A stretch of DNA of 53,361 nt. It comes from Promethearchaeota archaeon. GTDB taxonomy: Archaea; Asgardarchaeota; Lokiarchaeia; Sigyniarchaeales; SOKP01. Positions within the stretch are counted from its first letter, which is position 1. The number at the start of each line of letters is the position of its first letter. The notes below the pieces were generated by a model that ran no database searches, was not told the origin of the DNA, and saw only the letters and a list, made by a program, of their open reading frames with translations. Shown here in pieces: positions 14,287-37,321 of the stretch. The DNA lies in assembly GCA_030615235.1 (NCBI GenBank), contig JAUWZR010000002.1, positions 1 to 53,361 of the forward strand, read 5' to 3'. The position numbers were made by a program, and so were the translations under genes.

Positions 14287-14487
14287 TTCAAAACTAAGTG
14301 TAAGAGGTTCCCTAAGGAATTTAAATACAAACTACTTTATTAGATTTAACAAAAACTACTAATAGATGGAACAAAGAAATAAAAAAATTAAAAATCGAAA
14401 AAATATTTGTATCTTTATTATTGATATTTTATGATCTTATTTATCATTACGAAAACATAAATTATCAATTTCCTCCACAGATTAAAT

Positions 14488-14561
14488 GGGAGGGTGGTCT
14501 AGCTTGGTATGATTCCTGGTTTGGGACCAGGTGGCCGGGGGTTCGAATCCCCCCTCTCCCA
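14488..14561 (+). tRNA. tRNA-Pro (anticodon UGG), CCA not encoded
   Basis: Folded by hand. Acceptor stem GGGAGGG/CTCTCCC (one G-U pair), anticodon stem CCTGG/CCAGG with loop TTTGGGA (anticodon TGG, G37), T arm GGGGG-TTCGAAT-CCCCC, discriminator A, then a T-rich tract. Confidence 0.9.
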
Positions 14562-14644
14562 TTTTTACGATTTCTCTTAATTGAATTAGTTAAGCGACAT
14601 TAACATTAAAAAAAATAGGTAAATGACTCATAAATTAAAGAAAG

Positions 14645-15756: not shown

Positions 15757-16851
15757 TTAATTTTGGATTTTTTTTTTTAATTCTTTGAGAATGTTATCTA
15801 CTTTTTTATCCTTAATCCAATATCTTATTTTGGAGGATTGTAATAGAGATTGAATTTTACCATTAAGCTCTTTTAATTTTTGTTTATCCTCTTCAGATAG
15901 TTGAGGAATTTCTTCAATTTTTGACGCTCTAATCTTTTTTATATGTTCTTCTATAGAGGGGATATCTACTTGCTCCTTTCCTTCAATAAGAGCTTTCCTT
16001 AATACTTCTTTAATATTCTTAACCCAACCTTCTATCCAAGGATATGGCTCACTTTTTTTCGGATTTCTAATTTGAATTTTTTTCCTCTTAATGATAATTA
16101 AATCGTCAGGACAAGAGTTTTCGCACGCTCCACAATAAAAACATTCTTTTTCATTACACGCAATTTTACCATATTTTAGGACTTCTTCGGCGCTCTCAGG
16201 GATGTAAAAAGATTCTACGGGGCAGATATTAACACAAGTTTTGCAATTTTCTGGAGAACATTTATGCAACATATTCTTTTTTATTATAATTTCTCCTTCG
16301 ATTGGGGAATCAATAGAAAAGCAGTTGGTAGGGCATTCTTTTGCAATTTTATAGTATTCAACTATATTATTTCTTTCACGTACATCTAAGCATCGCTGAC
16401 AAGTCTCATTTTCTTGATCTTCAATGCAATTCTCAGAATCAATTTTATAAAATTTTTCGATAGAAGGAAATTCATCAAATGAAATATGTCCTCTTGGTTC
16501 GATATTATCGTGAAATGCGTCATTAGGACACACAATTACACAAAGCATGCAATAACAACATTTTTCATGATCAATTAGAAGTTTAGGATTACTTTTATCA
16601 ATTTTTTCTTGAGCGATATCTGAAATAGGTCCTAACTCTATCGCCTCGACTGGGCATACAAGCTTACATAAACTACAACCTATACATTTAGTAATGTCGT
16701 AAGTGAGTTTTTTTTTAACTTCTTTAAATTTCCAATTTAGAAATAATTGATTTGGATCAACTTCTAAACATTTTTCAATAATATCTTCATTATCTTGTGT
16801 TTTTTCTGATTTTAGACCTGAAGTAATATTTATCAGTCCTTCAATAAACAT
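15757..16851 (-). CDS. Polyferredoxin-like protein with multiple 4Fe-4S binding motifs
   Basis: Repeated CxxCxxCxxxCP motifs: CIGCSLCKLVCP, CCYCMLCVIVCP, CKTCVNICP and CFYCGACENSCP. The C-terminal tail is charged and helical. Confidence 0.8.
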   Translation of the reverse strand: MFIEGLINITSGLKSEKTQDNEDIIEKCLEVDPNQLFLNWKFKEVKKKLTYDITKCIGCSLCKLVCPVEAIELGPISDIAQEKIDKSNPKLLIDHEKCCYCMLCVIVCPNDAFHDNIEPRGHISFDEFPSIEKFYKIDSENCIEDQENETCQRCLDVRERNNIVEYYKIAKECPTNCFSIDSPIEGEIIIKKNMLHKCSPENCKTCVNICPVESFYIPESAEEVLKYGKIACNEKECFYCGACENSCPDDLIIIKRKKIQIRNPKKSEPYPWIEGWVKNIKEVLRKALIEGKEQVDIPSIEEHIKKIRASKIEEIPQLSEEDKQKLKELNGKIQSLLQSSKIRYWIKDKKVDNILKELKKKIQN

Positions 16852-17195
16852 TAAATATATTTAATTATCGTATTGTATAATTTCAAATAAGATTAATTGT
16901 TATAAGTTAGATATAAAATTTTTATAATCTTTTAGTTGTTTAAATAAAAATGATCAATTTAAAATTCGAAATCAGTTAGAAACAAAATAATTTATTCATA
17001 ATATGAAAATTCGATTTTATATATTAGGAGATATATTAAAATATGCGAAGAATTGAAAATCTGGACAAGCCTTTAATAGTAAGTATGTATATGATGAATA
17101 AAAAAGTATGAGCTTTAAAAAGTTATAATTTTCAAATCATTTAAATTTCAATTTATGTTATATTGTGATTAAATCATATAAAAATAAATTTTAAA

Positions 17196-17507
17196 TTGAT
17201 AAAAATGTCTGCTAATTTGGAGATTTTTGCTTTCTATTATAATACTCCTGAAGACGAATCAAAAATATTACTTAGGCAAAATTTAAGTGATTCCTATGAA
17301 GAATTAAAAAAAATTGCTGAGAAATTTAAATTAATAGATGAAATTCCTTCTATGGAAACTATGCAGAATATTATAAATTCAAATTCGTTTTATAAAATAA
17401 CTATAGACAACAATTTTTTTATATACATCCAAAAAAGCGTTATTACATTTAATATTAAAACAGATTCAAAATTTTTTAAAATCGAAGGTAAAGTCGTAAA
17501 GAATTAA
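17196..17507 (+). CDS. Hypothetical protein (103 aa); the only plus-strand ORF in the island
   Basis: ORF only, with no motifs. Confidence 0.3.
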   Translation: MIKMSANLEIFAFYYNTPEDESKILLRQNLSDSYEELKKIAEKFKLIDEIPSMETMQNIINSNSFYKITIDNNFFIYIQKSVITFNIKTDSKFFKIEGKVVKN

Positions 17508-17754
17508 ATTATTTCATTGAGAAGTTTATTAAAGCTTTCATTTTTTTATTAAAGTCCCTATATTTACTAATAGTTTAATTTTTGGCATATTATCTACTCA
17601 TACAATATTTTTCTATTTTTAACTCTATTATAACCAGTTAATTTTCAATCTAAAGAAAATGTTCACTATCATTGAAATCTATTCAATTCAACAAAATCAT
17701 ATTTGATAATTTTAACCTAATTATAAATTAAAAACTCAATAATAGATAAAGAAC

Positions 17755-20124
17755 TTATTTTAATCTTTTAAGATCATCATACAGATCAGTTCTTTTTGAA
17801 TTTTTGGGGATCTTTCTACTCAATAAGCATGAGTTTCTATTAGAATTTGTGATATTAACAAATTGTAGAAGTTTAGGATATAGATCTTCAGGATTAAACG
17901 AATAAGCCATATCTTTACTAAACCCTACACATAATAAATTATTGTTAATGTGGACACCATAATCTTCTAATCTATTCTTTAATAAAATACCATAAGCAGT
18001 GAGTTGTGGTAATGATCTATATATTTCATCCTCATCTTGTTTATAGTCAGCAATTATTAAGTATCCATTTATGAAAAGAATTATATCAATATGACCAATG
18101 TTAAATAAGTTTGAATTTTCAATAGGCTTCCAAACGGGGGATTCAATTGCTATAGTATTATTATCATTTGTTATTACATAAGCCAAAATAGGTGGATGGT
18201 CTGGTTTCTTGCCTATTCTATTTTTTTTATAATATTCAAAAACCTTTTGAACATATTTACACAAAAAAAAGGAAGAATCATATGCTTTTAATTCATCTTT
18301 AAAAAAATCTTTTATATATTCAAATTTTAAGTGCTCAGCATAAGAGCCATAAAATTTTAACATTGAGGCTCTGGGATTATCGTTAGACATGAATATATCA
18401 CGAGGAAAGTTTTCTCTCCAAAGATCATTAAGAAAGTTATAAAGCCCTAGTTTTAGTTGATCATTATTGATGATATTTAAGCGTTCTTCTTTCCATCTAA
18501 AAGGATATGTAATACTTTGATGTTTAAAATCCTTCCGCTTTAATTCTTGTATAGTATTAACCCAATCTATAAAGTATCTTTTATAATATTCTGTATGGTT
18601 TACTTTTATAAATTGACGAATTTTTTCAAATGTATTAGGGTCACTAAACGATGTTCTATTTCGAATTACACGTAATACCCCGCTGGTTCCAAGTATATTA
18701 TGAATAAATAATTTATTTCCAAATTCTTTTGGCTCCATATCTAAAGATTGATATAATTCAAGTAAAAATTGAGTCTCATTGTGATAAAATTCTTGTAATG
18801 ATTTTCTCATCATTTTAATAAAAGTTTCTCTACTATATATCTGCCCTTTATACCTTCCTATATAATCTGCTATATAATCATATAACCGATTGAAATTTTG
18901 ATCATTCACATGTCTAAAACTAAATTCAGACCCAAAACATTGTTCTAATTTCTTAGGAGTTGCTATATCTTCTAAACCACTTGTCTTTTTAAATGTGTAG
19001 TAAAGTAAAGAAAATGCAAAGTTCTGTGGAAAATAATAATCTATTTCGTTGTTTTTATTTATATCCAAAATTGGAAAATCGTTTACAATTGCACAATCAA
19101 AAATTGCCATTGCGTTTTCAATTGAATCACTTATATTAATTCTTAAATCAGGACTTAAAAAAGATTCTAATTTATTAACATATTGAGTTAAATAATTTTC
19201 TACTTTCTGTTGATATTTATCTTGTTCTAGAACAAAATATTCTAACATTATTTGATGTAAAACTTCAGTAAAATTAGTACACGGCATATTAAAGTTTTCA
19301 TTTTCAAGTAACAAATCAAGAAAGTCCGTCTTGTTCAATTTAAGATCTTTTTCATATTTCAAGAAAATAAAACACAAAACCGCTGCTAAAATTTTTGGCT
19401 TCTTTTTTTTCAAACTAATAAAAAAAGACTGAAATTTATTTTCTCCCTCAATTGAATCAATAATTTCCCAAAAGTCCTCGGAAATTTTTTCGGAATCACC
19501 CTCCGAAAAGTTAATGTCATTTAAATTTCTATTATTTAGATATTCAGCATATTTATGGATATATTTATTAGTTAATTCGAAATATTCATTCTCAGTTAAT
19601 TTGTCAGCATTTATTAACTCAAATATGAAATTATATTCGGGAATTCTTTTAAGATGGCTTGAAATTGTAGAACAAACGCTGTTTAAACTTGATAAGGATA
19701 AATTCAATATTTTGGCTAAATCTTTTCGGACCATATTTTCACCTAATCTAGCAAGGTTGAAATAAATCAAAGAAGCTGCTATATAAATGGGATTTTTTAC
19801 TTTTCTTGTCCCAAAACTCTTATAAAATTCATATAATGAGAGGAGGTTTAAAATATCCTCATATATCTTAATGCAATCTTCTTGAAAAGTCTTAGTTAGT
19901 TTGTATTTTAATTCAAAATTTAATTTATTTATGTGATCATCAAGATAAACAAAAATTTTATTCCAATACTTCCTAGTATCACTAACTTGGATTTTTTGCT
20001 TTAATTCATCTTTTTGAATTTCATTATTATCCCAAGATGATTCAGAACCGCATGAATTTATATCATCACGGCTAATTTTTGGTCGGTTCTTATCTGGACA
20101 ATTAAGGTTGCCTTTTTCTCTCAC
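17755..20124 (-). CDS. Large protein with helical (possibly TFIIB/cyclin-like) repeats and a C-terminal RecB/Cas4-type PD-(D/E)xK nuclease domain
   Basis: The C-terminus NIGHIDIILFINGYLIIADYKQDED...LPQLTAYGILL matches the RecB-family motifs GxhD, (D/E)YK and QxxxY. Three N-terminal segments resemble cyclin-box repeats, for example VKNPIYIAASLIYFNLARLGENMVRKDLAKILNLSLSSLNSV. GTG start. Confidence 0.55.
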   Translation of the reverse strand: MREKGNLNCPDKNRPKISRDDINSCGSESSWDNNEIQKDELKQKIQVSDTRKYWNKIFVYLDDHINKLNFELKYKLTKTFQEDCIKIYEDILNLLSLYEFYKSFGTRKVKNPIYIAASLIYFNLARLGENMVRKDLAKILNLSLSSLNSVCSTISSHLKRIPEYNFIFELINADKLTENEYFELTNKYIHKYAEYLNNRNLNDINFSEGDSEKISEDFWEIIDSIEGENKFQSFFISLKKKKPKILAAVLCFIFLKYEKDLKLNKTDFLDLLLENENFNMPCTNFTEVLHQIMLEYFVLEQDKYQQKVENYLTQYVNKLESFLSPDLRINISDSIENAMAIFDCAIVNDFPILDINKNNEIDYYFPQNFAFSLLYYTFKKTSGLEDIATPKKLEQCFGSEFSFRHVNDQNFNRLYDYIADYIGRYKGQIYSRETFIKMMRKSLQEFYHNETQFLLELYQSLDMEPKEFGNKLFIHNILGTSGVLRVIRNRTSFSDPNTFEKIRQFIKVNHTEYYKRYFIDWVNTIQELKRKDFKHQSITYPFRWKEERLNIINNDQLKLGLYNFLNDLWRENFPRDIFMSNDNPRASMLKFYGSYAEHLKFEYIKDFFKDELKAYDSSFFLCKYVQKVFEYYKKNRIGKKPDHPPILAYVITNDNNTIAIESPVWKPIENSNLFNIGHIDIILFINGYLIIADYKQDEDEIYRSLPQLTAYGILLKNRLEDYGVHINNNLLCVGFSKDMAYSFNPEDLYPKLLQFVNITNSNRNSCLLSRKIPKNSKRTDLYDDLKRLK

Positions 20125-20787
20125 AAGATACCCTGTCTATATTAGATATGGATAAACTAAAATATATTAAGAACAAATCCTATTTCTTTAAGGAAATTTT
20201 ATTCCTATTAATATTATTATCATGATCTTTTTAAATTAATAGAAAAAAGCTCTAAAATTTATATTACTATAATCAATAACGAATTAATTTAATCTAATCT
20301 AAATATTTTATCTCTAATAAATTTTACCTGCTCAATCTTTATAAATCTTTGCTGGATTCTTTTCTTTGATTTTGTCTTTATAAATGTCCTAGAAATTTTC
20401 TATAGGATTTTTCCTATATTAACATTCCGCAAAAACTATACCTAAAAATAACCGAAGAATACCTTATACTACTATAAACTATTTTTGAATAATGATTTAT
20501 ACTAGTATAAAGTTTTATAGCTTAGTTTAGATTTGCTATGTATTTTTATTCTTTTATTTCATTATTTAAACATTTTCTTCGAACATTATGTCAAATAATT
20601 ATTGGATTACCCATTTTAGATACTCTAGAATAGTTATTTTTTAAAATCGTTCCAATTTCCAATAATAATTTGTGGTCTTCATATTGTAATTGACTCCATT
20701 CCATTCTAACGTGCCATTCTTCAACATATCTTCTTTTAAATAATTTTTACAATTTTCACAGAATATAACAATTCTGTTCCATTTTTA

Positions 20788-23604
20788 TCAGGAATTTGAA
20801 GGAAAGATTAATTCCTTGAATTCCTTCGTGTCTTTAATATAATTTAATTTTGTATCCATATTTGCTGTTTCTTTATATTTCTCATTCAGTTCGATTGCTT
20901 TTTCTAATAATCTTAAAGCTTCTTTTTTATTATTTCTAAGGGATTCAATACAAGCTTTCTGATAATATATATTGTCATTATTTTTATCAAGTTTTAATAC
21001 TTGATTATAATATACCATGGCTTCATCGTATCTTTTTAATTCCTGCAACGCAACTCCTTTATTGACTAATGCTGAAATTTTATTTGGTTGAATTTCCAGT
21101 ACTTTTTCGAAATATTTGATCGATTCTTGATATCTCTCTAAGTCTATTAAAGCGCTACCTTTATTTACCATTGCATAAGTATTATACGGGTCAATCAACA
21201 TTGCTTTATCATAAAGATCTATTGCTTCCGCATATTTTTTTAACATAACTAAAACATTTCCTTTATTTACTAATGCATAAGTATTATTTGGATCAATTTC
21301 CAACGCTTTATCATAAAGATCTATTGCTTTTGCATATTTTTCTAATTTAGATAATGCTATTCCTTTATGAAATAATACAAAAGGTTCATTTGGATTAATC
21401 TCTAATGCTCTATCATAAAGAGCTATTGCTTTCTCATATCTCTCTAAATTTAAGAATATTTTACCTTTATTGACCAATACCATAGGATGATTAGGTATAA
21501 TCTCTAATGCTCTATCATAAAGAGCTATTGCTTCTTCATATCTTTTTAAATCAGACAATACATTTGCTTTATTAACTAGGGCTAAAAAATCATGCGGGTC
21601 AATTTCCAGAGCTTTTTCATTATAATCCATAGCCTCCTCGTATCTCCTTAATTCATACAATGCAATTCCTTTATTAGTTAATGCTCTTAGGTGATTTGGA
21701 ATAATCTCCAATGCTTTATCAAAATAAGTTATTGCCTTTTTGTATTTTTTTAAAGCATTTAATGCTGTCCCTTTATTGATTAATGCTTTGGGTTCATGAG
21801 AATTGATCTCCAATACCGTATCACAATTTTCTATTACTTCCCCATACCTCTTTAAGTTTATTAGGGAATTACTTTTATTAACTAGTGTTTCAATATCATA
21901 AGGATTAATATTCAATATTTTGTCATAATTTTCTATTTCCTGTTCGAATTTTCCTAAAGCTGATAACGCGATCCCTTTATTAAAAAACGCTTCAGTTTTA
22001 TATGGGTCAATTTTTAAAGTTTTATCATAATACTCAATTGCTTTTTGAATTTTTTTCAACTTATATAACGCAATACCTTTATTAACTAATATATCAGTAT
22101 TATTCTGGTCTAATCTTAATGCTTTATCCCAACATATTATTGCTTCTTTATAAAGTTCTAATTTTGATAATGCTACTCCTTTATTAATTAATATTTCAAT
22201 CTTATTTGGATTAATATTTAATACTTGATCAAAATATTCTATTGCTTTTTTATGACTCCCTACGTCAGATAAGACAATTCCAATGTTGAATAATGTATCT
22301 GTGTCATTCGGATTAATCTCTAAAGCTTTGTTAAAACATTCTATTGCCTCTTGATATCTTCCTAAATAAGCTAATGAATTTGCTTTATTGAATAAAATTT
22401 CAAAAATATGAGGGGTAATCTCTAATATTTCATCATAGTATTTCATTGCCTCTTCAAACTCTCCAAAATAAAAGGAAAGATTTGCATTAGAACTTAGAGA
22501 TTCTATCCTCTCTGTTACACTCACATGTATTTTTTTAATAGTTTCTTCTTCTAAATTTTGAATTATGGGTTCTAATTGAGGTTCTTCAAAGATTTTAAGA
22601 GAATTCCATTTAATATCCTCCCTACTCTCCCATTTTGGTTGAGTTGGATTCGAATAAAAAATTTTACGGAAAGCAATCCTAAATTCTTTATTAATTTTTA
22701 TAATAGAAAAATTATTTTGATAATATGAACCCTTATAGGATGCACCTCCAATATAGAGATAAGCTCGATTTTTAATTCGATCCGCCTCATCTATAAGTTC
22801 ATTATGAAAATGACCAGATAAAATAATATGGCTTCTTTTTGCCAATTCGCTATATGTAGCGATTCTTTTAGGATTACTTTTTTTTTCAAATTCATGCAGA
22901 TCATCTTTAGGATGATGCATTACAATAATACTGAGTTCTTTAGTATTATAATCTTTTTTTGTAATAATTTGATTAGATTTTATTAAGATTTGAAGTAAAG
23001 GTAACCCAATCCATAATTTACCTTTACATTGATCATTATAAGCGTACCATGCAGAATTAAACACTATAAATCTAATTCCAGAAATGATTTTTTTTCCAAC
23101 TAGATAATTCTTATAATTTCCAATAATCAAGGGTGTTATACCTAAATCTTTTTTGAAATTGATAAAAGGTCTAAAAAGTGGTTCAAATTGCTTAAGTTTT
23201 TCTAATTTTAAATAATCATCAGCCTGTTCATAAGAACTTGGTGGTATTGCGATAATTTTATCCCTATCAATATCATGATTACCGGAGGATATAATTATGT
23301 TTTCAGGTCTAATATTTGTGATTTTCATTAACTTTAATAACCACTCTTTTGCTAATTTATAATCTGCGATTTTTCCCGCCCAGGCTATATCCCCAGAAAT
23401 TACAATAATTTGGGGTTTCCAAAAATCATCGATTTTTTCTAAAGAATTTAATAATTTATTTAGTTCATTTTCTCTTTCTGCATACTTCGTTTGATTTTTT
23501 CTTAGAATTTCATTACGATTAAAATGCAAATCTGAGATGTGAAGTATATTTATACAAGATTCTTTATATCTACTGAATTTCTGTTTTATTATTTCTTCAT
23601 TCAT
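20788..23604 (-). CDS. Calcineurin-like metallophosphoesterase fused to about 16 TPR repeats
   Basis: MPE motifs ILHISDLHF, VISGDIAWAG, SSGNHD, VMHHP and LSGHFH are in the first about 330 aa. About 16 units of 34 aa follow (xLxNKGxALxxLxxYxEAIxxYDKALEIxPN). There is no P-loop. Confidence 0.8.
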   Translation of the reverse strand: MNEEIIKQKFSRYKESCINILHISDLHFNRNEILRKNQTKYAERENELNKLLNSLEKIDDFWKPQIIVISGDIAWAGKIADYKLAKEWLLKLMKITNIRPENIIISSGNHDIDRDKIIAIPPSSYEQADDYLKLEKLKQFEPLFRPFINFKKDLGITPLIIGNYKNYLVGKKIISGIRFIVFNSAWYAYNDQCKGKLWIGLPLLQILIKSNQIITKKDYNTKELSIIVMHHPKDDLHEFEKKSNPKRIATYSELAKRSHIILSGHFHNELIDEADRIKNRAYLYIGGASYKGSYYQNNFSIIKINKEFRIAFRKIFYSNPTQPKWESREDIKWNSLKIFEEPQLEPIIQNLEEETIKKIHVSVTERIESLSSNANLSFYFGEFEEAMKYYDEILEITPHIFEILFNKANSLAYLGRYQEAIECFNKALEINPNDTDTLFNIGIVLSDVGSHKKAIEYFDQVLNINPNKIEILINKGVALSKLELYKEAIICWDKALRLDQNNTDILVNKGIALYKLKKIQKAIEYYDKTLKIDPYKTEAFFNKGIALSALGKFEQEIENYDKILNINPYDIETLVNKSNSLINLKRYGEVIENCDTVLEINSHEPKALINKGTALNALKKYKKAITYFDKALEIIPNHLRALTNKGIALYELRRYEEAMDYNEKALEIDPHDFLALVNKANVLSDLKRYEEAIALYDRALEIIPNHPMVLVNKGKIFLNLERYEKAIALYDRALEINPNEPFVLFHKGIALSKLEKYAKAIDLYDKALEIDPNNTYALVNKGNVLVMLKKYAEAIDLYDKAMLIDPYNTYAMVNKGSALIDLERYQESIKYFEKVLEIQPNKISALVNKGVALQELKRYDEAMVYYNQVLKLDKNNDNIYYQKACIESLRNNKKEALRLLEKAIELNEKYKETANMDTKLNYIKDTKEFKELIFPSNS
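20800..22480 (-). repeat. 102-nt periodic coding repeats (TPR array), with some neighbouring units nearly identical
   Basis: Near-duplicate runs are visible, for example ctctaatgctctatcataaagagctattgc at about 21401 and about 21503. These correspond to RYE(E/K)AIALYDRALEI units. Confidence 0.8.
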
Positions 23605-24156
23605 AACAATGGTTTACTTCAATTATGTGTTATTAGTTTGATCAAATATAAGTATAAAAGATTAGCTTATATTTTCATTTTTAGTTATATAAATAAAGTC
23701 TTATTTTTGAGATATTTTTTTTGATTATTACATTTGTGTAATTTCTTGATAAAAAAATTAAGAGGGTAATTCATTTAGAAATGCATATAAATTTTTTACA
23801 TTTTGATCTACTTCACTAAAATTTGCATTCATATTTAATTAACCAATTACCATTCTTATAATCTGAAAAAGATTCAGTCAATTAAATTCTTTTATTAGTT
23901 GGGTATAGTAATGATTTATCGATTGCAGTGGTCAACATAATTATTAATTTTTCTCTCTCTCATAGTTTTGAAAATCCTCATTTCAAGGAAGAAGAGTTAA
24001 GCAAAATTTATTTACACATTCAAGGATTAAAAATCTAGAGTATTGTAAGAATCTTATTATTGGGATAAATATCATTCATTATTAGATATATTTAGATTTA
24101 AATGCTTTTAACACATTGCTTTTATATGGGAGTTTTATAGGGATTGAGTAATTAAA

Positions 24157-24417
24157 TTATTCTTTTGAAAAATCTTCTAAGGTCCTGCATTTATATGGAA
24201 ATTCTAACTTATTTTCGCAGTTATTACATTCTATTTGAATTTCACAAAACGAAGGATCATTAATGTGTCCAAAAAACTTTACAGAGCAGTCTTTTCCACA
24301 TTCTGAACATTGGAAATCAATATAATCGCTTGGAGAATCGGTAATAAAAAATCTTACTCTACCAGCTGGATTTTCATTTTCTAAATAATTTCTAAGAGCA
24401 TTATGTTCATTAGACAT
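24157..24417 (-). CDS. Small Cys-rich zinc-ribbon protein (86 aa)
   Basis: CSECGKDC...C...C and CNNCENK provide paired CxxC motifs. It lies 263 nt downstream of, and co-oriented with, the NLR-like gene. Confidence 0.45.
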   Translation of the reverse strand: MSNEHNALRNYLENENPAGRVRFFITDSPSDYIDFQCSECGKDCSVKFFGHINDPSFCEIQIECNNCENKLEFPYKCRTLEDFSKE

Positions 24418-24680
24418 ATTTTAAGACCTCCTTTAATTTTACATTATTTTATTATTATTATATAATTCATTAAAAAAAAATGAATCTAGTAATCAATAAA
24501 TAAGATACATTATTAATTGAATATTTAGATTATTTAAGAGATATTAGCTATAAACTTCAACACATAGATGCTAGAGTCAAGCAATCCGAAACAGAAATGT
24601 TATTTCATAATACAATAAATATTATTAATATCCATTATTCATAGACTACATTAATGTTCATCTTCTTATCAAGATCTGCT

Positions 24681-27600
24681 TCATTCAATTTTGTTTAATG
24701 AATCTGGGATTGAGCAATTTGGAGCTACCTTAATAATATAAAATTTTGGATTTAATAAAGTTAAATAATCATCTAATGAAATCTCAATCTCCTTATCTGT
24801 ATAGATTCTTAAATCAATGTCATTTTCTTTAATTTTTTTAAGATCTTCTGGTAAAATTCTTAATTCTGGAAGCTCAACCCATAAGTGTGTTAAATTGAAT
24901 AACTCATGGAGGAAATTTGGAAATTTGCAATTAGTTTTTACCTTAATTTTGAAAGTACAAATATCTTTTGGATTCCAAAAATCATTTGAAAACTCTATAA
25001 ATTTGTCAGTTATGACCAGTTGCTGGATTTGCTTGAAATGTATTAAATATCTTGGTATTTGGTCAATAAGCTCTGTATTTACCTCAAGATATAATAAGTT
25101 TCTACATTCTTGGACAAAATTAGGTATAAAATTATTATCATCAATTCTAATATGAGTTATTTTATCGAAATTACTCTCTAATAAATCAAAAAATCTACTT
25201 ATTCTTGAACCTGAAACTCTTAAATGAGCAATATTTTGAGTATTTGAAAATTGTATAGGTTTTCTATGCGAGATCGAAATTTCCATGCGATTATTTTTAT
25301 TATCTTCCCAAAAATTTTCTTGGAAATCTTGAGAACCCCCGAATGAAATATGTAGACACTTTATTTTTGGAAGGTTTTTAATTAATTCTGGAATTTTATC
25401 TAATGGAGGATTTATCCAACGTATATAAGATAAATTTTTAAGATTCTCCCAAGATTTTGGTAAGTCTTTTGCTGCTATATCAATTATTTGAAGATGTGTT
25501 ATATTTTCTAATTTATTAAGCGATTCACTTAATATGCATCTTTTATTTACTCTAAGTTCTAATCTATACTTAGTATCTTCACTTCCAAATTCCCCTGTTA
25601 ATCCGGTTAACGTAATCGATGTTATCAATAGTTGAGTAAATTGAGATAAATTACCAAAAAAGTTAGGTAGCTCTGTTAATTGAGGAAGATTAATTCGAAG
25701 ATGCGTTATATTTTTCATTGAAATTTCGTCTTTGGGTAATTTACAATCATTTCTTACTCTTGCTAAAAATATACCCTTATTCGAATTATTAAGAAAGTCT
25801 TCATTAGAAGTAGGTAGAGGATCTTCTGAAATAAGCATTTTTTTAATATAAGGTGATAAAAATACCCAAGCTTTTAAATTAGTAACAAATGGGAAATCTA
25901 TTCTTAGATGGGTTAAATTCTCGAAATTACCTATTATATCCGGTAAAATGCTTTGGCCTCTTGAAAATCCGAATAAATATATTCCTTTACCAGAGATTTT
26001 CCAATAGTTTATTTTTTTAAAGAATTCTTTTGTAAGATTTTCTTGATTGGTGATTAGAAGCTTATTTAATACGCCATTAATAGATACATTTTTTGGGAAT
26101 CTAGTAAGTACCTTAATCCATACTTTTTCAATATGAGAAGGAATAGTTAACTCATTTAATATAAATTGTGTAGGGAGGTTAACTAATATTCGAGAACTGT
26201 CTAATTGGTTTTGAGCCATATAATCTTTGATATCTTCTAGATTTTGAGATATATTAATTAAAATGTTCGGAAACATATCCCATTTAAATACAATATCCGG
26301 TAAAATATTTGATATTTGAGAATTGATGATTACCTCGTTTAACTTAGAGCAAGATTTTAGACTTTCAGGAAAATTAAATTTAAAGAAATTTTCTATATAA
26401 ATTGATTCAAGATTCTTTAATAAAGAAATTGATTCATGCAGATTAAGTACAAATTGATGACCTTTTCCTTGAATATCAATTATTTTTAAATTTTTGATTG
26501 TAGTACTTTTCCCAAATTTAATTAATTCTCCCTTAAGTTCTAAAGATTCTAATTCTTCTAAGGACCAAAATAAATCTTTAAATTCAAAATAGTTTTGCAT
26601 TTCAAATATATTCAATAAACTCTTTGGTATTTGTAATGTTAAAGAACTAATATACTCATTAGAAATTGTAACCCAATAAGTATATTCACCAGAATAATCC
26701 TTTAAATGATTTAAATAATCAATAATGACAGCATCCTTAATTTTTAAATGAATTTTTTCCAGTTTCGGCGTTAATTGCCCTCTAATTTCTATTTCATCAT
26801 CTACAATTAGTAAATTATCGTCAACATAATTGATGGATGGTAATGTTTGCTTTTTTGGGTAAAATGAAATATATGTATTTCTCATTAAATTGATAAATTT
26901 AAGATTCTTGAACTCATGCCACCATGAGTTAATTGATTTTATATTGTTATATTGAATATTTATTCTAAATAACCTGTCTAAATTTGTTAAAGTATCTGGA
27001 AGTTCTTTCAATTCATTATGGTCTAAATTTAGAACTTCTAAATTTTTTAATCTACCAATATCTTTAGGAAGTTTTGGTAATTCATTATCTTGAAGAGCTA
27101 ACTTCTTTAAACCTATTAATTTATAAACCCCTTTGGGGATATGTTTTGTTTTTATATGATCTAGGTATAATTCCGATACACGATCATTTATATCAATTAC
27201 ATAACCTTGACTTCTCTTTATTTCTTCAAAATCTGAAAGATTTCTTAGTCTGTGATTTCCTATTTCAACTTCAATTTCTCCTAATGAATTTGCATCGGAT
27301 TTACAAATTTCAAATTCTTGAAATCTTTGTTTCAATTTAGAACTATAGTGTTCAATAAAACCTTGGTATTCTTCTTGAAAGAAATATTTAAATTGTGTTT
27401 TTGTTTTATCCATTTTTATAATACCACTAGAATAGATTACATCCCAACTTCCTTTTTTGTTATATCGAAATTCACTAAGCTCATTATCAAGAATGGGAGT
27501 ATAAGGATCCGCAATTATACTTACTAAATCTTTGAAATCATTTTCTACAGTACCCACAATTCCCATCCTGTTCAAAATAGTATTTTCATTTTGGCGACTT

Positions 27601-29561
27601 TCGAAAAGATTATACCAATCATCTTTAGATGGATTAAATTTTTTTTCGATGATATCTACATTACTTTCGGAGATTATTTTGATGATAAAGGGTTTCATTA
27701 ATAATTTCTTAACGAGCTTATCCTTAATCTTCTCATAGTTTATCCCATAATTTTCATTGATCTTTTTTAATCGTGCTAAATCTTTAATATCTGAAAGAAT
27801 ATAACTAGTACCAGTAGGAATTTCAGTATCTTCGAAGTTATTGAATTTATCATTTTGAAAAATATACCGTTTAAATTTTCTATAATTTCTGATTATTTCT
27901 TTAGAATTTATCCAATCTACTAACCTTGATGTCAATAATATAATTAAGTGCTCATAGTTCTTGTCTAATTCAATCATATCACAGAGATTGTTTAGAAACT
28001 CTCCTCTCTCGTCTTCAGTTAATTCCTCAAAACCATCAAAGATTAGTAAGACATTTCTTTTTTGTCCCTCTTTGAATGCAATTAATCTAGTTATCTTGCA
28101 TAAATCTTTATTAAAACCTCCTAATATATTTTCAAACCGATCTTCATATGAGCGAAGATGAAAATAAAAAGTTGGGATTTTTCTCTGCTTGATATATTCA
28201 AATGCGAGATATGATGCATTCCATGTTTTTCCCAATCCCATGTATCCTAGTAATAAAAAAATTCTATTTTTTTCCTGAGGATTCTTAAGGTTTCTAAAAA
28301 AATTTTCAAAAAAATGCTCAAGATCTGGGTTTTTTTCAAAGAGATCTAAATTGAATCTAGTTTCGAACCTTGAAGCTAGATCTACTAATTCTAACTGTTG
28401 TAAACAATAATTAAGCAAAGTTTCATCTTCAAATTCAATTATTTCATTTTGATTTTTCGCTCTTAATCTCCATAAAGGCATTTTAAAATTTTCAATAGTA
28501 AAATCAATCTGACTCCTCCAATTTATAATTTTTGGGTTCATAATCTCTAATTTCGAAATCAGGCGTGAACTTATAACATCAAAAAATGAAGGATTTTTTT
28601 CATAATAACCCTTAAGTAAACTTAATGTTTGAAATAATTTATCGAAAATTTTTTCTTTTTGAATAGTATTATCTTCAAAAAAATTATCTATCTCTGCAAT
28701 AATTTGAGAAACAATTTCTCTCAGATCGGTAAGTCTGATTTTATTAATTAATTCTTCTCTATTTGAGTCTTTTAGCTTAATTTGAAGGAACTTGTCTAAA
28801 TAATCATATAAGCTATTAATAAAAAGTTTGATATTATCTAAATTCATAGTAATTATGAAAGTTAAAGCCCACTCTATGATATCTCGAATATTTTTATCAA
28901 ATTCTTCAAGAAATGCTTGTTCTAAATTTGTATTAAGAAAATCTTCTAAACCCTTCTCAATTGTCTTCGAATCCTCAAAAAACATTTTATAATCATCTTC
29001 AACTATATCACTCTGTAATTTATACCTTCTTAAAGCATTTTTAAATGCATTTTCAATTTTGTCATTAGAGCAAAAAACTTCATAAAAACCTTCTGAAAAG
29101 GTAATTGCGTCATTATCATAAACTTTCCTTTTTGTTCCTATCGAGCAAGGCAAATATTCAGAGACTCTCTTTGCAATCTTTAAAGATTCACAAGAATTAA
29201 AAATTATAATTTTAATGATTTGTTCAAAATCTTTGAGGACACCAATAGTTTCTTCAAAAAGAAACTGAGAGCCATAACTTTTCTCAAAATGAATATCATC
29301 TTCAAAATAAAATCCACTAGATTGTTCACCATGTCCAGCAAAATGGATCATTTGAGGTTGATATCGTGAGATACATTCAAAAAATTCATTTCTTTCGGTG
29401 GCAAAAGCAGATTCAAGATAAATAAATTCACGAAATGGTGACTTTTCAATTATTTTCTTAATTGTCTTGAATTCTTTATCAATACGAGTCTTAACTGTAC
29501 TTTCTTTGAAATTTGCGGAAAGAAATAAAATGGTAAATTTCTTCTTTTTTAATCCTAACAT
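24681..29561 (-). CDS. NLR-architecture STAND protein: N-terminal caspase/CHAT-like domain, NACHT P-loop NTPase, long LRR region (1626 aa)
   Basis: His-Cys dyad context MIHFAGHG ... IIIFNSCES (aa about 70-130). Walker A LLLGYMGLGKTW (nt about 28221-28262). NACHT-type Walker B LLIFDGFEEL (nt about 28023-28052). Canonical LRRs LKKLALQDNELPKLPKDIGRLKNLEVLNLDHNELKELPDTLTNLDRL (nt about 26930-27130). Irregular LRR-like units with N(I/L)THL(R/Q)I continue to the C-terminus. Confidence 0.75.
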   Translation of the reverse strand: MLGLKKKKFTILFLSANFKESTVKTRIDKEFKTIKKIIEKSPFREFIYLESAFATERNEFFECISRYQPQMIHFAGHGEQSSGFYFEDDIHFEKSYGSQFLFEETIGVLKDFEQIIKIIIFNSCESLKIAKRVSEYLPCSIGTKRKVYDNDAITFSEGFYEVFCSNDKIENAFKNALRRYKLQSDIVEDDYKMFFEDSKTIEKGLEDFLNTNLEQAFLEEFDKNIRDIIEWALTFIITMNLDNIKLFINSLYDYLDKFLQIKLKDSNREELINKIRLTDLREIVSQIIAEIDNFFEDNTIQKEKIFDKLFQTLSLLKGYYEKNPSFFDVISSRLISKLEIMNPKIINWRSQIDFTIENFKMPLWRLRAKNQNEIIEFEDETLLNYCLQQLELVDLASRFETRFNLDLFEKNPDLEHFFENFFRNLKNPQEKNRIFLLLGYMGLGKTWNASYLAFEYIKQRKIPTFYFHLRSYEDRFENILGGFNKDLCKITRLIAFKEGQKRNVLLIFDGFEELTEDERGEFLNNLCDMIELDKNYEHLIILLTSRLVDWINSKEIIRNYRKFKRYIFQNDKFNNFEDTEIPTGTSYILSDIKDLARLKKINENYGINYEKIKDKLVKKLLMKPFIIKIISESNVDIIEKKFNPSKDDWYNLFESRQNENTILNRMGIVGTVENDFKDLVSIIADPYTPILDNELSEFRYNKKGSWDVIYSSGIIKMDKTKTQFKYFFQEEYQGFIEHYSSKLKQRFQEFEICKSDANSLGEIEVEIGNHRLRNLSDFEEIKRSQGYVIDINDRVSELYLDHIKTKHIPKGVYKLIGLKKLALQDNELPKLPKDIGRLKNLEVLNLDHNELKELPDTLTNLDRLFRINIQYNNIKSINSWWHEFKNLKFINLMRNTYISFYPKKQTLPSINYVDDNLLIVDDEIEIRGQLTPKLEKIHLKIKDAVIIDYLNHLKDYSGEYTYWVTISNEYISSLTLQIPKSLLNIFEMQNYFEFKDLFWSLEELESLELKGELIKFGKSTTIKNLKIIDIQGKGHQFVLNLHESISLLKNLESIYIENFFKFNFPESLKSCSKLNEVIINSQISNILPDIVFKWDMFPNILINISQNLEDIKDYMAQNQLDSSRILVNLPTQFILNELTIPSHIEKVWIKVLTRFPKNVSINGVLNKLLITNQENLTKEFFKKINYWKISGKGIYLFGFSRGQSILPDIIGNFENLTHLRIDFPFVTNLKAWVFLSPYIKKMLISEDPLPTSNEDFLNNSNKGIFLARVRNDCKLPKDEISMKNITHLRINLPQLTELPNFFGNLSQFTQLLITSITLTGLTGEFGSEDTKYRLELRVNKRCILSESLNKLENITHLQIIDIAAKDLPKSWENLKNLSYIRWINPPLDKIPELIKNLPKIKCLHISFGGSQDFQENFWEDNKNNRMEISISHRKPIQFSNTQNIAHLRVSGSRISRFFDLLESNFDKITHIRIDDNNFIPNFVQECRNLLYLEVNTELIDQIPRYLIHFKQIQQLVITDKFIEFSNDFWNPKDICTFKIKVKTNCKFPNFLHELFNLTHLWVELPELRILPEDLKKIKENDIDLRIYTDKEIEISLDDYLTLLNPKFYIIKVAPNCSIPDSLNKIE

Positions 29562-30069
29562 TTTAATGATTCTTGTGTAATCAGTTGAATATAATCAAAA
29601 TTAATGAGATTTAAAAACTGTTTTCTGATGTCTTTTGATTTCGAACTTCATTTAATAAAAATAATATAAATTCTTGTTTTATTATAATAAATAATAATCA
29701 TCCTTATATATATTTAACAATTGGAGGCAACTCACAGTTAATTTTTCTTGTTATTCTTTTTAAGCAAAGTTATTCTTTTTTAATTCTTCTAATTTCAACT
29801 TTAATATGATTAAATAATGAAAAATTTGTTAATTTCTCTGATTCTAAGAATTTTTCAGTTATTTATTTGATTTTTAGAATATCACATCTATAAATCAAAA
29901 GAACCCTTACAGAGGAATTTATCATCTTTCCACTTGAGATGAAAAATAAATCTATATATTAAATGGAAAAATAAAAAAAAACCATTTACTGAAGCTATTG
30001 ATTAGTGCAATTATTATACTTGTGATTAACAAGAAATTAAAGATTAAGATGCTTTAATTAAGTAATTAT

Positions 30070-31008
30070 CTAAAGAATAATTCTTATTTTTTTTATGGTG
30101 TAAAAGTATAGTGCGATTGTGTTAATTCCTATGTCTAAACATACTAGATAATAATAATAATCCCATAATGATTCTATGTCTAATACTTCATTATAAGTCT
30201 GTTTTCCATTGCGATTAAAATCTAATATTTGTATTTTGTTTATATGTGATTTTATAATAATGCATTTTTCATGATGTGCAATAGCATTTCTTACATGAAT
30301 TAATGAGAATAATAAATCTCTTATTAATTGGGGCGGTGTTTTTTTATTATTATTTTTTAGTTGAAAAATGTCGTATATATTATTTCTATACCTACTACTT
30401 TTTTTATTTCCTTCGTATTTAGATAATTCCACTCCCAAGTATTCACACCTTCCAAGAAATATGCCATAATAATTTTTATATGTTTCCTTAAAGCGTAGAA
30501 CTTTTTTATAAGGATCTTCTACTGGGTTCTCAAGTAAGTATCTTAAATTTTCTTCTTTTGTTAAATATTTGTTTTCCTTAAATAAAGATATTGTTGAGTC
30601 TTTATTTATAACAGGATAATTAGTAGCAATTTTTGCAAAGAAAATAAGAGGAATTTCACTTTCATAAGGAAGTATTCTATTCTTAAGATATTTAAACCAT
30701 TTTTGGTTTAATTGATAGGTTTTATTATTACAACAATCTGCTTTATATAAGATTTTATAGAGTAATAATCTTGCTGTTAGACTAGCTATTAAATGATAAC
30801 CATTAAATTGATTATAATTTTTAGGGTGTATAAGAAGATCCCAAAAATAATATTTTGTAAGTTTTTCATCTATACTTTTATTAATTAATATACTTAATTC
30901 TTTTGTTAATTTTTTTATAAATTTAGATATATCTTTTTTATATTTTACAGGATCCAAAAATCTATTATAAAAATCAAATGGATTTATCGATTTCATTAAA
31001 TTACTCAT
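30070..31008 (-). CDS. Hypothetical protein with a C-terminal HEPN-type Rx4H motif (candidate RNase/Abi-like)
   Basis: LLFSLIHVRNAIAHHE contains RNAIAH, which fits the HEPN consensus R(N)xxxH. The rest of the protein is not recognised. Confidence 0.4.
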   Translation of the reverse strand: MSNLMKSINPFDFYNRFLDPVKYKKDISKFIKKLTKELSILINKSIDEKLTKYYFWDLLIHPKNYNQFNGYHLIASLTARLLLYKILYKADCCNNKTYQLNQKWFKYLKNRILPYESEIPLIFFAKIATNYPVINKDSTISLFKENKYLTKEENLRYLLENPVEDPYKKVLRFKETYKNYYGIFLGRCEYLGVELSKYEGNKKSSRYRNNIYDIFQLKNNNKKTPPQLIRDLLFSLIHVRNAIAHHEKCIIIKSHINKIQILDFNRNGKQTYNEVLDIESLWDYYYYLVCLDIGINTIALYFYTIKKIRIIL

Positions 31009-31106
31009 TGAATATTAAAAAGAAGTTCAATTTTAAAAAGATAGTGATTGTTCTTTTAATTTTTTTAATATATCTAATTAAATTTAATTAATCTTCAGAA
31101 TTTATG

Positions 31107-31730
31107 TTAATATAGTAAGTTTACACCCTGGGGATCGCATTTATGTAACATGTTTTTCCTAATAATGACTTCTCCCTCGATTGGAGTACTGATAGAAAAA
31201 CAATCAGCGGGGCATTCTTTTGAAATTTTATAATAATCTTGGATGTGATTCCTTTCTCTTACTGTTAAGCATAATTGGCAAATTTTATTTTCCTTATCTT
31301 CAGTACAATTATCAAAATCGATTTCATAGAATTTCTCTAAAGTTGGAAATTCATCCATAACAATTTGTCCTTCTGGCTCAATATTTTCATGGAACGCATC
31401 GGTGGGGCAAACAACGACACATAGCATACAATAACAACATTTATCGTGATCAATAAAAAGTTTAGGGTTTGAATCGTCCAATATATTTTGGGCAATTTCT
31501 GGGATTGGTCCAAGTTCTATGGCGTCGACCGGGCAGACAAGTTTACATAAACTACACCCAATACATTTTTTAATATCGTACGTTAGTTTCTTCTTAACAT
31601 CCTTATATTGCCAATTTAAAATTAAATGATCTTGACTAATCTCGAGGTCTTTCTCGATTTTATCTTCTTTAATTTCTTTTTCTGAGAAGGTTTTGGAAAT
31701 TCTAAGATTACCTCTTAAAAAATCTAAATT
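31107..31730 (-). pseudogene. Truncated, start-less paralog of the polyferredoxin gene (equivalent to residues 1 to about 206 of the 364-aa copy)
   Basis: The tracked ORF 31107-31481 matches residues about 85-205 of the 15757-16851 product. The same frame stays open upstream and reads NLDFLRGNLRISKTFSEK...LNWQYKDVKKKLTYDIKKCIGCSLCKLVCPVDAIELGPIPEIAQNILDDSNP. The position of the Met codon is GAT, and no canonical start occurs before TTG at 31481. Homology ends abruptly at ...NMLHKCDPQGVNLLY*. Confidence 0.7.
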
Positions 31731-32190
31731 CTAATTAGTTCTACGGTATCATATTTAATAATCTTAACTATTAAATAAAAAAAGAAGTCAGTAATAACTG
31801 AATTTCGATTAATAGTAATTCTATCAAGTCTATTTGTCCACTTTAGGTTCTGTTTGTCTTTGATAGAATAGAGCCTTGCTTTACATTTATTCCATTACCG
31901 ATTAATAGATTTTAAGATTCTACCTGAAATGATAATTGGCTTTAAATTTCTGTTTTCTACCGTAGTTATTAAATTAATCAATCCAAAATCGATTGATAAA
32001 TATCTCTTTGCATCCAACTTTGATTGTAAACAGCTGAGTTCAATAGAATTAAGGGATCACTTTTATTTGGTGTTAAATTCAAAATTAAAGCAAATTATTT
32101 TATACAACTTCTACCATTATTTTCTGGATATTATTATTTTTTTTAAATCATAAATTGTGGTATAAGAATTTCTGAAAAAGGTGAGGAAAA

Positions 32191-33720: not shown

Positions 33721-33758
33721 TTATTACGAGAGATATTACTGAGCGAAAAGGTGCAGAA

Positions 33759-37226: not shown

Positions 37227-37321
37227 ATAAGAGGTGGAAGCATTAATTATTGACGATATTCATAAATTTACAGATAATTATTAGTTAGAAAAATAACTTT
37301 AATTTCAAAAGTAATTTCTTA

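Follow-up and report, generated by a model that had tools for sequence, protein, structure and literature searches.

A foreign island inserted in the polyferredoxin gene of a Promethearchaeota archaeon belongs to an integrase-less family of target-restoring elements and carries conflict-type genes

The window analyzed here is a stretch of 53,361 nucleotides of the chromosome of a Promethearchaeota archaeon (a Lokiarchaeia-type Asgard; assembly GCA_030615235.1, contig JAUWZR010000002.1, positions 1 to 53,361), and our subject is an integrated element of about 14.9 kb at positions ~16236-31124 of that window. The element carries five genes, all on the minus strand, and is bordered on both sides by parts of a gene for a polyferredoxin. 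The gene next to the full-length copy of this target is referred to below as the hallmark gene and the other four as cargo. The features, in window coordinates, are as follows.

15757-16235, minus strand: native 3′ part of the polyferredoxin gene (FwdF-like, 4Fe-4S), host DNA outside the island, recognized by its identity to loci L002-L006
16236-16245, minus strand: right junction, with the attR-like core TGCAAAACTT on the minus strand, placed at the identity switch
16246-16851, minus strand: 5′ part of the polyferredoxin gene brought by the island (~620 nt with the core counted in), fused in frame with the native 3′ part into an open reading frame (ORF) of 364 aa
16852-17754, no strand assigned: spacer of 19% GC, promoter region of the chimeric gene, with a 103-aa ORF; a variable cargo slot in sister elements
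17755-20124, minus strand: hallmark gene, 789 aa, TFIIB-like / RecB-type PD-(D/E)xK nuclease
20125-20787, minus strand: conserved noncoding region upstream of the hallmark gene
20788-23604, minus strand: cargo, metallophosphoesterase with ~12 TPR, 938 aa
24157-24417, minus strand: cargo, zinc-ribbon protein with two CxxC pairs (by sequence), 86 aa
24681-29561, minus strand: cargo, CHAT - NACHT-type STAND NTPase - LRR protein, 1626 aa
30070-31008, minus strand: cargo, alpha-helical protein with an RNAIAH motif, 312 aa
31009-31116, minus strand: left end of the island, with a 16-nt perfect palindrome, TAATTAAATTTAATTA, at 31075-31090; the same left end occurs in L086, L087, and L088
31117-31124, minus strand: left junction, with the attL-like core GTAAACTT; similarity to the native gene stops here
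31125-31670, minus strand: native 5′ fragment displaced from the polyferredoxin gene (gene nt ~52-611), a pseudogene without a start; ORF 31107-31481 lies inside

An earlier reading of the letters without database searches (the sequence-only reading) had placed a co-oriented conflict or defense island at 16852-31106. All five ORFs (312, 1626, 86, 938, and 789 aa, counted from the left end) proved intact at the positions it gave, and only the limits were slightly off: they are corrected here to ~16236-31124, as 620 nt at the start of the polyferredoxin gene are part of the island. The AT-rich spacers of about 260-660 nt described by that reading measure 508, 263, 552, and 663 nt, a further one of 903 nt separates the hallmark gene from the polyferredoxin gene, and such spacing is indeed unlike the rest of the window, where ORFs are separated by a median of about 66 nt. 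GC content is 19-22% in the spacers versus 26-29% in the island genes, and 25.3% in the island versus 31.5% in the core flanks and 29% in the whole window; the island is compositionally foreign. Compared with homologues in other contigs, all five genes show ratios of nonsynonymous to synonymous substitution rates (dN/dS) of 0.15-0.36, indicating purifying selection. Rfam models run over the window matched only a tRNA-Pro, and the spacers contained no Rfam family and no ORF of note; the 103-aa plus-strand ORF (17196-17507) in the spacer before the polyferredoxin gene had no match in Pfam, PADLOC, or PHROGs. Searches for tandem and dispersed repeats found no iterons or terminal inverted repeats in the spacers beyond the AT-rich expectation, with the exception of a TATA[G/C]TAGTATAA motif upstream of the hallmark gene, and the window showed neither cas genes nor repeat arrays. 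The tRNA gene itself, tRNA-Pro(TGG) at 14487-14562, is flanked by the w14645 and archaemetzincin genes at a distance of 1.2 kb from the island and does not serve as an integration site here.

The sequence-only reading had also reported direct repeats of a housekeeping gene on both sides of the island. These repeats are real: a partial duplicate of the polyferredoxin gene was confirmed, with 73% identity over 300 ungapped nt, 551 nt aligned by BLASTN, and 71% protein identity (E value 6e-65) between the full-length gene (15757-16851) and the fragment ORF 31107-31481. Their correct meaning, a conclusion not drawn at the time, is that of a site-specific integration, in which a mobile element replaced the 5′ part of its target gene. 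The full-length gene is chimeric: over its 3′ part (15757 to ~16231; 475 nt), it shares 83-96% nucleotide identity with L002-L006 in 100-nt windows, whereas its 5′ part (16232-16851) shares only 66-84% (~72%) with the same relatives. In a sliding window, identity jumps abruptly from ~72% to 90-95% at ~16232, with the breakpoint at ~16232-16245. The nearest neighbors of the 3′ part are L002, L005, and L004 (91-93%); those of the island-borne 5′ part are the 5′ parts of other element-bearing loci, namely, L090, L089, L027, L071, and L011. The displaced fragment at the far end has 95.3% nucleotide identity to L002 over 513 nt (gene nt 99-611) and 92.4% to L006 over 551 nt (from nt 52; window 31121-31670), its nearest neighbors are L002, L006, and L003 (95-96%), and its protein is 87-95% identical to the closest relatives, compared with 77% for the full-length copy.

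The empty site is preserved in the six closest genomes (L002-L007), in which the homologue of w40585 (window gene 40585-41085) lies 75-80 nt from the polyferredoxin gene with nothing in between and the flanking genes mostly share 80-96% protein identity with those of the window, a few being lower. The same interval measures 23.7 kb in the window, of which the island makes up 14.9 kb. Because a native 3′ part and a displaced native 5′ piece stand here against a foreign 5′ part, about 14.9 kb of foreign DNA entered the gene at the core. The island is thus of foreign origin and lies inserted inside the polyferredoxin gene, and the locus displays the marks of an integrative element: an occupied versus an empty site, a partial target duplication, a restored chimeric gene, and a core, although an imperfect one, at both junctions. 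This core, TGYAAA(A)CTT, falls in codons of a Cys-x-x-Cys 4Fe-4S motif. At the left junction, L086-L088 read TGTAAACTT where the window has GTAAACTT. The ~70 nt before the start codon of the chimeric gene are common to L011 and L082 and differ from the native promoter of L002-L007. On integration, the element supplied a promoter together with ~620 nt of 5′ coding sequence, and fusion with the native 3′ 475 nt restored an intact ORF; the native 5′ piece was pushed aside and persists as a pseudogene at the far end. The predicted junctions are ...CTCCAGAAAATTGCAAAACTT/ACTATATTAACATAAATTC... for attP and ...GATCCCCAGGGTTGTAAA(G)CTT/GTGTTAATATCTGCCCC... for attB. The 16-nt palindromes at 16850, 20496, and 31075 were considered as marks of recombination sites; the window holds 6 such palindromes, and the island is its most AT-rich part.

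Some observations around the target gene deserve mention in their own right. L005 has no element, and its sequence at ~10520-10620 (aligned to window 16232-16331) carries an island-type patch just 5′ of the core, with 84% identity to the window versus 69-72% in the sister genomes; this patch may be the scar of a past integration and excision or the product of gene conversion. At positions 1-355 of L087 (SDBS01070860.1), at the left end of the same island, a stop-containing pseudogene homologous to w14645 (76% nucleotide identity) is fused to a polyferredoxin fragment (residues 169-208). The normal place of w14645 is downstream of polyferredoxin, and the fusion could stem from a rearrangement, reflect a tandem or circular form, or be a chimera created by the assembly. 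Finally, window 31671-40584 is a second segment not found in the closest relatives; it took the place of the promoter and initial 50-98 nt that the displaced polyferredoxin fragment has lost. It encodes multi-PAS proteins on the plus strand (32191-33720 and 33759-37226, the latter a sensor histidine kinase by sequence reading), a PAS histidine kinase on the minus strand (37322-39520), and a 246-aa ORF (39697-40437); similar kinase genes fill the same interval in L017 and L014.

Sister elements were found in at least 10 other contigs. The hallmark gene lies upstream of the polyferredoxin gene, on the same strand and at a distance of 72 nt to ~4 kb, in 11 of the 11 sister contigs that hold the downstream DNA (L011, L071, L082, L083, L084, L085, L089, L090, L093, L094, and the remnant in L027); L091 and L092 end before any polyferredoxin gene. 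This adjacency persists down to 38% protein identity of the hallmark protein (L083), and L027 and L063 retain short C-terminal hallmark remnants at this position. The window, L011, and L090 each show both junctions, and in L011 and L090 the displaced 5′ fragment adjoins the w40585 homologue. These complete elements measure 14.9 kb, ~7.7 kb, and ~11 kb, respectively, and the hallmark gene is the sole gene common to them. A metagenome scan with an alignment of 10 hallmark sequences yielded 6 close loci. To place the element among related species, GTDB species genomes were scanned with the window polyferredoxin protein, which gave 80 loci, mostly titled Promethearchaeota or Promethearchaeia, with a minority bearing other Asgard titles or "uncultured archaeon" and one labeled bacterium. 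The hallmark gene or a remnant of it is present in 4 of these 80 species-level loci, and a tight empty site in 33 of the 63 that hold both flanking genes. Together with the empty site in the six closest genomes, these counts mark the island genes as accessory and not core.

The polyferredoxin 5′ halves of element-bearing loci are mutual nearest neighbors (77-91%), whereas the 3′ halves group with the element-free relatives of each host: the window with L002 (93%), L082 with L040, L017, and L014 (95-96%), and L011 with L056 (82%). Because the 5′ halves cluster together and the 3′ halves by host, the element must have inserted repeatedly into the same gene in different host lineages. This pattern also bears on an alternative in which ordinary homologous recombination or a local duplication or rearrangement (bringing in, for example, a segment from another Lokiarchaeon) produced the locus without any dedicated element. 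We regard this as very unlikely: the same gene, the same region (nt ~611-635), and the hallmark gene recur in several unrelated hosts, each with a host-specific 3′ part; the two copies are only 73% identical with no long identical stretch at the junction, which makes them a poor substrate; and a replacement would leave no native 5′ fragment. In favor of such an origin are the lack of a recognizable integrase, left junction positions that differ between loci, and the general variability of the interval between w40585 and polyferredoxin, which spans 0.6-8.5 kb in 30 of 63 species-level loci. Large inserts in this interval in L019, L061, L032, L022, and L074 were examined as possible instances of the same phenomenon and set aside, as they come with no gene duplication and with genes of metabolic or surface type (judged from translation starts only).

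Apart from the hallmark gene, the content of the elements varies. The L011 element carries a Ser/Thr kinase fused to an HD domain, the kinase matching PD-T4-6-like and mad6-like profiles; L090 and L089 carry a DUF4062 protein; L091 carries a TIR (TIR_2) protein and a HEPN_Swt1 protein matching PDC-M34B; L094 carries a TPR protein and a weak HEPN_Apea match; and homologues of the window STAND protein are carried by L071, L082, and L090. In the comparison with L082, cargo genes have dS values of 0.07-0.25 versus 0.79 for the hallmark gene, and nucleotide identity amounts to 95% in the region upstream of the hallmark gene versus 76% in the hallmark gene itself. Since the cargo is far closer to L082 than the hallmark gene is, we conclude that cargo is modular and exchanged between backbones. 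When L082 9334-12397 is aligned with window 17755-20790, a recombination breakpoint appears at the start of the hallmark gene. At the protein level, the cargo is 82-94% identical to that of L082 and the hallmark protein 68%, and the island-borne polyferredoxin 5′ part of L082 resembles the native sequence of the window's own clade (85%).

None of the island ORFs matched a tyrosine or serine recombinase, a transposase, or Cas1 in Pfam, NCBIfam, PADLOC, or PHROGs, and no recombinase was recognized in L011 and L090, whose large ORFs were profiled and whose small ORFs were read by eye. The 312-aa protein was considered as a divergent tyrosine recombinase on account of its position at the left end and was rejected, as it shows no R..HxxR..Y pattern and no profile match, its conserved motif being RNxxxH. 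The sequence-only reading had listed the hallmark protein as a RecB-nuclease fusion among defense-type genes. The nuclease motifs are borne out, and the gene is better read as the element backbone beside the target gene than as defense cargo. While the PD-(D/E)xK profile match is weak (PF12705, E value 0.0035), the RecB-type residues E661, D680, D693-x-K695, and Q707xxxY711 are invariant or nearly so in 24 diverse members; among the cysteines of the family, only C622 and C732 are conserved. PADLOC returned a Cas4 match at an E value of 0.003.

We modeled the hallmark protein with AlphaFold2 from 10 sequences (predicted local distance difference test score, pLDDT, of 73). Foldseek aligned the N-terminal third with the two cyclin repeats of TFIIB, Brf2, and archaeal TFB (probability 1.0; E values 3e-3 in PDB and 1.6e-4 in BFVD; low template modeling [TM] scores) and the C-terminus with RecB/Cas4/MGME1 nucleases, Cas4 (4r5q) and MGME1 (5zyv) being matched only weakly. 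Since the protein has several domains, TM scores are low, and the fold matches are to be taken as leads rather than proof. Pfam gave no sequence-profile match for the TFIIB-like domain, and a PDB sequence search with the hallmark profile returned no useful match. The conserved helical region in the middle, ~300 aa long, has no assigned fold. Residues 1-46 are disordered and contain no CxxC...CxxC pair, whereas in P0010, the member that diverges most, an N-terminal CxxC...CxxC ribbon is retained as in true TFBs. The N-terminus is thus like archaeal TFB/TFIIB in being predicted to fold as two cyclin repeats and unlike archaeal TFB in that most members have no zinc ribbon; because this ribbon is missing, we do not class the hallmark protein as a TFB. 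The C-terminus is like Cas4, RecB, and MGME1 in its E, D, (D/E)xK, and QxxxY motifs and, unlike Cas4, has neither the four-cysteine Fe-S cluster nor an association with CRISPR. The first database searched contained 10 homologue clusters, and a profile search of 1.84 billion representative proteins (from a library of 15 billion) returned 336 relatives, 72 of them below an E value of 1e-30. The relatives (P0014-P0162) include proteins of 1000-1400 aa with other N-termini as well as stand-alone nuclease-domain proteins of ~240 aa with a weak PDDEXK_1 match, and subfamilies among the ~336 might target other genes.

The noncoding region upstream of the hallmark gene (20125-20787) contains three TATA[G/C]TA[G/A]TATAA near-palindromes, at 20259-20271, 20464-20476, and 20497-20509, which recur at the same offsets (~-388, -355, -150) in L071 and L082. 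The proximal ~110 nt before 20124 are strongly conserved and include an almost invariant TTTAAAAAGATCATGATAATAATATTAATAGGAAT segment in six elements. This region may be an operator, a promoter, an origin, or a recombination site. As the hallmark gene is the only constant gene, lies at the end of the element, and has intact nuclease residues, its most likely role is in integration, homing, or maintenance of the element; its product would be a candidate to recognize and cut the target or the element ends, or to maintain the element in some other way. A more specific proposal, which we put forward tentatively, is that the protein is a new kind of mobility enzyme in which a TFIIB-derived recognition module, possibly together with TBP, reads the core and/or promoter-like end sites and a RecB-type nuclease drives site-specific integration or homing in Asgard archaea. 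A protein of 719 aa, encoded in L071 (18293-20452, minus strand) right after a gene read as dapB, shares ~28% identity with the middle region of the distant hallmark member P0100, and an 86-aa remnant at the same place in L027 (17552-17812, minus strand) looks by eye like the same gene; the site after dapB may thus be a further variable spot that harbors a related protein.

TFIIB homologues and Cas4-like nucleases are common on archaeal viruses and integrative and conjugative elements (ICEs) (PMC6563490; our Foldseek matches in BFVD), and the island is integrated, AT-rich, and foreign, so that a degraded provirus or integrated plasmid has to be weighed. In the window element, no replication, conjugation, or virion genes (capsid or packaging) were found, and L011 and L090, its complete sisters of 7.7-11 kb, are equally devoid of them. 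Moreover, PHROGs matched only the TPR and phosphoesterase regions, and 2.9 million IMG/VR contigs contained no relative of the hallmark protein. On these negative IMG/VR and PHROGs results we rejected the provirus reading, and consider an origin as a degraded provirus or plasmid highly improbable.

To our knowledge, the integrating elements described so far all use tyrosine or serine recombinases, DDE transposases, or Cas1. SXT/R391 elements, which reside in prfC, enter a conserved gene at its 5′ end and provide it with a new promoter and new 5′ coding sequence. The island described here resembles integrative islands and ICEs in its occupied and empty sites, short core, restored target ORF, displaced fragment as a direct repeat, and variable cargo, and differs from them in having no tyrosine or serine recombinase, DDE transposase, or Cas1, its sole conserved gene encoding the TFIIB-like/PD-(D/E)xK protein. 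Archaeal integrated mobile genetic elements that target protein-coding genes are documented, those of thaumarchaea using the 3′-distal parts of genes (PMC6563490), whereas in the window it is the 5′ part that is replaced. Asgard elements that have been described use tyrosine integrases (PMC11529989). In the literature, we found no description of a TFIIB-like/PD-(D/E)xK fusion or of integration into polyferredoxin in Lokiarchaeia. The family of integrase-less, target-restoring elements is what is new here.

Among the cargo, the 1626-aa protein has the clearest architecture, an N-terminal effector and a C-terminal repeat sensor. Its CHAT caspase-like domain aligns with PDB entry 8tl0 (E value 1.7e-12), HFAGHG facing HFIGHG and the Cys motif FNSC lying, within the aligned block, opposite LNAC of the CHAT protease; PADLOC adds a SAVED_CHAT match (E value 8e-6). 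The motifs HFAGHG (73), FNSCES (121), GLGKT (442), and IFDGFEE (507) are intact, the last two being the Walker A and Walker B motifs of a NACHT-type STAND NTPase. At the profile level, NPHP3_N scored 26.7 bits against a cutoff of 24.8, with weaker nSTAND matches, and the NACHT model itself reached only an E value of 0.0094, below its cutoff. The LRR region is matched by LRR_14 (E value 1.9e-19) and LRR_8 (E value 2.9e-10). Binding of a ligand by the LRR would lead to NTPase-dependent oligomerization and, in turn, to activation of the caspase-like protease. The N-terminal 760 residues found only ~5 homologues among 5.8 billion clusters.

Prokaryotic STAND proteins usually have TPR or beta-propeller sensors. 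The window protein is like Avs and bNACHT proteins in combining an effector, a STAND NTPase (here with a DGFEE Walker B and a CHAT effector), and a repeat sensor, and unlike them in that its sensor is an LRR array, as in animal NLRs. It shares a homologous CHAT domain with SAVED-CHAT of type III CRISPR-associated cascades (PDB 8tl0); unlike that protein, it has no SAVED domain, and its activation would proceed via NACHT oligomerization and not via a cyclic oligonucleotide. Bacterial STAND proteins with N-terminal caspase-like proteases are known (PMC13581612), and the CHAT-NACHT-LRR combination in an Asgard archaeon is a new member of this caspase-STAND kind. An LRR-STAND homologue of 38% identity without a CHAT domain occurs in the complete genome of Promethearchaeum syntrophicum (L095; CP042905.2, 2300626-2323877). 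Clustered with it are an SNase gene, a PLD-helicase-DUF3427 gene, a TIR-LRR gene, a ParE-like toxin gene, and a 1972-aa ORF, which together form a candidate defense island in a cultivable organism.

The 938-aa protein matches Pfam Metallophos (E value 3.6e-12, above the cutoff), TPR_1 (E value 9e-124), and TPR-S (E value 1.8e-12), with about 12 TPR repeats, and its five metal-binding motifs (DxH, GD, GNHD, HH, and GHxH) are intact as SDLHF, SGDIAW, GNHD, MHHP, and GHFH. PADLOC matched it to PDC-S60 (E value 8e-24) over profile positions 1-294 of 1027 only, which correspond to the phosphoesterase domain; the match is not full length, the remainder of the protein being TPR here. The NCBIfam anti-phage phosphoesterase DS9_1 was matched below its cutoff (E value 1.2e-16), and a PDB sequence search with the phosphoesterase domain gave no useful match. 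In this protein, the TPR array would act as the sensor and the phosphoesterase as the effector. The zinc-ribbon protein is 94-97% identical in L082 and L086 and always encoded just downstream of the STAND gene; beside more distant STAND homologues, its gene is absent. In the 312-aa protein, the RNAIAH motif (Rx4H; R240-N-A-I-A-H245) is invariant, even in a homologue of 30% identity, and a protein with this HEPN motif would be an RNase. No profile matched it in Pfam (up to an E value of 10), PADLOC, or NCBIfam, except for Csm6_6H in one member (E value 0.026), and its AlphaFold2 model was unusable (pLDDT 42).

Is this, then, a defense island? Foreign origin and variability are shown, and the conflict-type content claimed by the sequence-only reading is borne out: CHAT, NACHT, LRR, Metallophos, TPR, and PD-(D/E)xK domains were recognized, HEPN by its motif alone. 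That none of the genes belongs to a named defense system also agrees with a PADLOC run, which returned only the candidate PDC-S60 and domain-level matches (SAVED_CHAT, Cas4). What did not stand is the treatment of the five genes as a single set, which mixes a backbone gene with independent cargo. Defense islands and hotspots of defense cargo on mobile elements are described by Makarova et al. 2011, as cited in PMC13581612. The island is like these in being variable between related genomes and compositionally foreign, in combining mobile genes for protease, nuclease, phosphoesterase, and NTPase-switch domains with repeat sensors, and in that cargo differs among sisters; it is unlike them in that no component matches a validated system and its host is an Asgard archaeon.

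Whether the five genes might form one multicomponent defense system, with sensor, effectors, and nuclease acting jointly, can be judged from their relatives. All five are co-oriented, the order HEPN-STAND-zinc ribbon recurs in L086, L087, and L088, and the order STAND-zinc ribbon-phosphoesterase/TPR-hallmark recurs in L082. These contigs, however, are close relatives (82-96% protein identity), and the shared gene order may therefore reflect shared ancestry. At greater divergence the genes come apart: L071 keeps the STAND (85%) and hallmark genes, with other genes in place of those for the zinc-ribbon and phosphoesterase/TPR proteins; L011 and L090 combine the hallmark gene with wholly different cargo; and near STAND homologues of 35-63% identity the other four island genes are all missing. 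Each gene, moreover, has its own long AT-rich upstream spacer. A joint system is thus improbable. As distant STAND homologues occur without the other island genes and beside other conflict-type genes (TIR-LRR, ParE toxin, PLD-helicase, SLFN_AlbA_2, and DUF4365), the five genes do not make up one obligate system: one serves as the backbone, and the rest are independently moving conflict-type cargo. The four cargo genes would be independently transcribed, stand-alone or loosely paired sensor-effector immune genes.

The cargo could also serve purposes other than antiviral defense, such as element addiction or stabilization, kin discrimination, regulated cell death, or signaling in an archaeon of complex cell biology. 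Asgard genomes are rich in LRR, TPR, and STAND-type signaling proteins, no named defense system was matched, and the adjoining variable segment (31.7-40.5 kb) consists of PAS histidine kinases, all of which would suit a mobile island with such functions. However, protease, phosphoesterase, or RNase motifs paired with STAND, LRR, or TPR recur in defense islands, the TIR, DUF4062, HEPN_Swt1/PDC-M34B, and PD-T4-6-like kinase-HD proteins of the sister cargo are also of defense-island types, and the Promethearchaeum syntrophicum homologue lies beside TIR-LRR, ParE toxin, and PLD-helicase restriction-like genes. We therefore hold a non-antiviral cargo to be unlikely.

Taken together, these results are probably best explained by a horizontally acquired genomic island that integrated into the polyferredoxin gene, restored its target, and carries exchangeable conflict-type cargo. 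Several points weigh against this explanation. At the junctions, the two core copies are imperfect (TGCAAAACTT versus (T)GTAAACTT), the codon of the left junction differs (residue ~205 here, ~195 in L011, and 139 in L090), and the left ends of the window and L011 elements show no visible similarity; the varied left junctions point either to decayed junctions or to a mechanism less precise than classical site-specific recombination. Neither an excised circular form nor an attP junction was seen among the contigs. On the side of the cargo, PADLOC finds no complete known system, we infer the defense role of the island genes from domains and neighborhood, the HEPN call depends on a single motif, and some L090 cargo (an EamA-like membrane protein and a beta-helix protein) is not obviously defensive. 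Second insertions downstream of polyferredoxin, with a displaced 3′ fragment, were also found in L011 (11093-14885), L071 (11033-13897), and L038 (11640-11783). The L011 duplicate, which shares 95% identity with the main copy, begins at the same core (gene nt ~620-635) and comes with an S8 peptidase and a 137-aa ORF as cargo; in L071, a duplicate of only the last ~75 codons, 67% identical, accompanies an 802-aa protein that by eye has many winged-helix domains. The second insertions in L011 and L071 have no hallmark gene, so that the core may serve more than one kind of element; and as the one in L011 used the same core, a recombinase could act in trans or be host encoded. The imperfect cores, the varied left junctions, the dissimilar left ends, and these second insertions likewise count against a role of the hallmark protein in integration.

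The carrier of this conflict-type cargo is a family of islands, each of which inserts into the same conserved gene and restores it, without any of the known integrase classes and always with a TFIIB-like/RecB-nuclease fusion. If the hallmark protein moves the element, it would represent a new mechanism of DNA integration, programmable in the sense of a defined target. The junction of hallmark gene and polyferredoxin offers a simple marker for finding further islands and their cargo in metagenomes. With its caspase-like protease, NACHT NTPase, and LRR, a single Asgard protein on a mobile element unites the domain logic of animal NLRs, which bears on the origin of the architectures of eukaryotic innate immunity.

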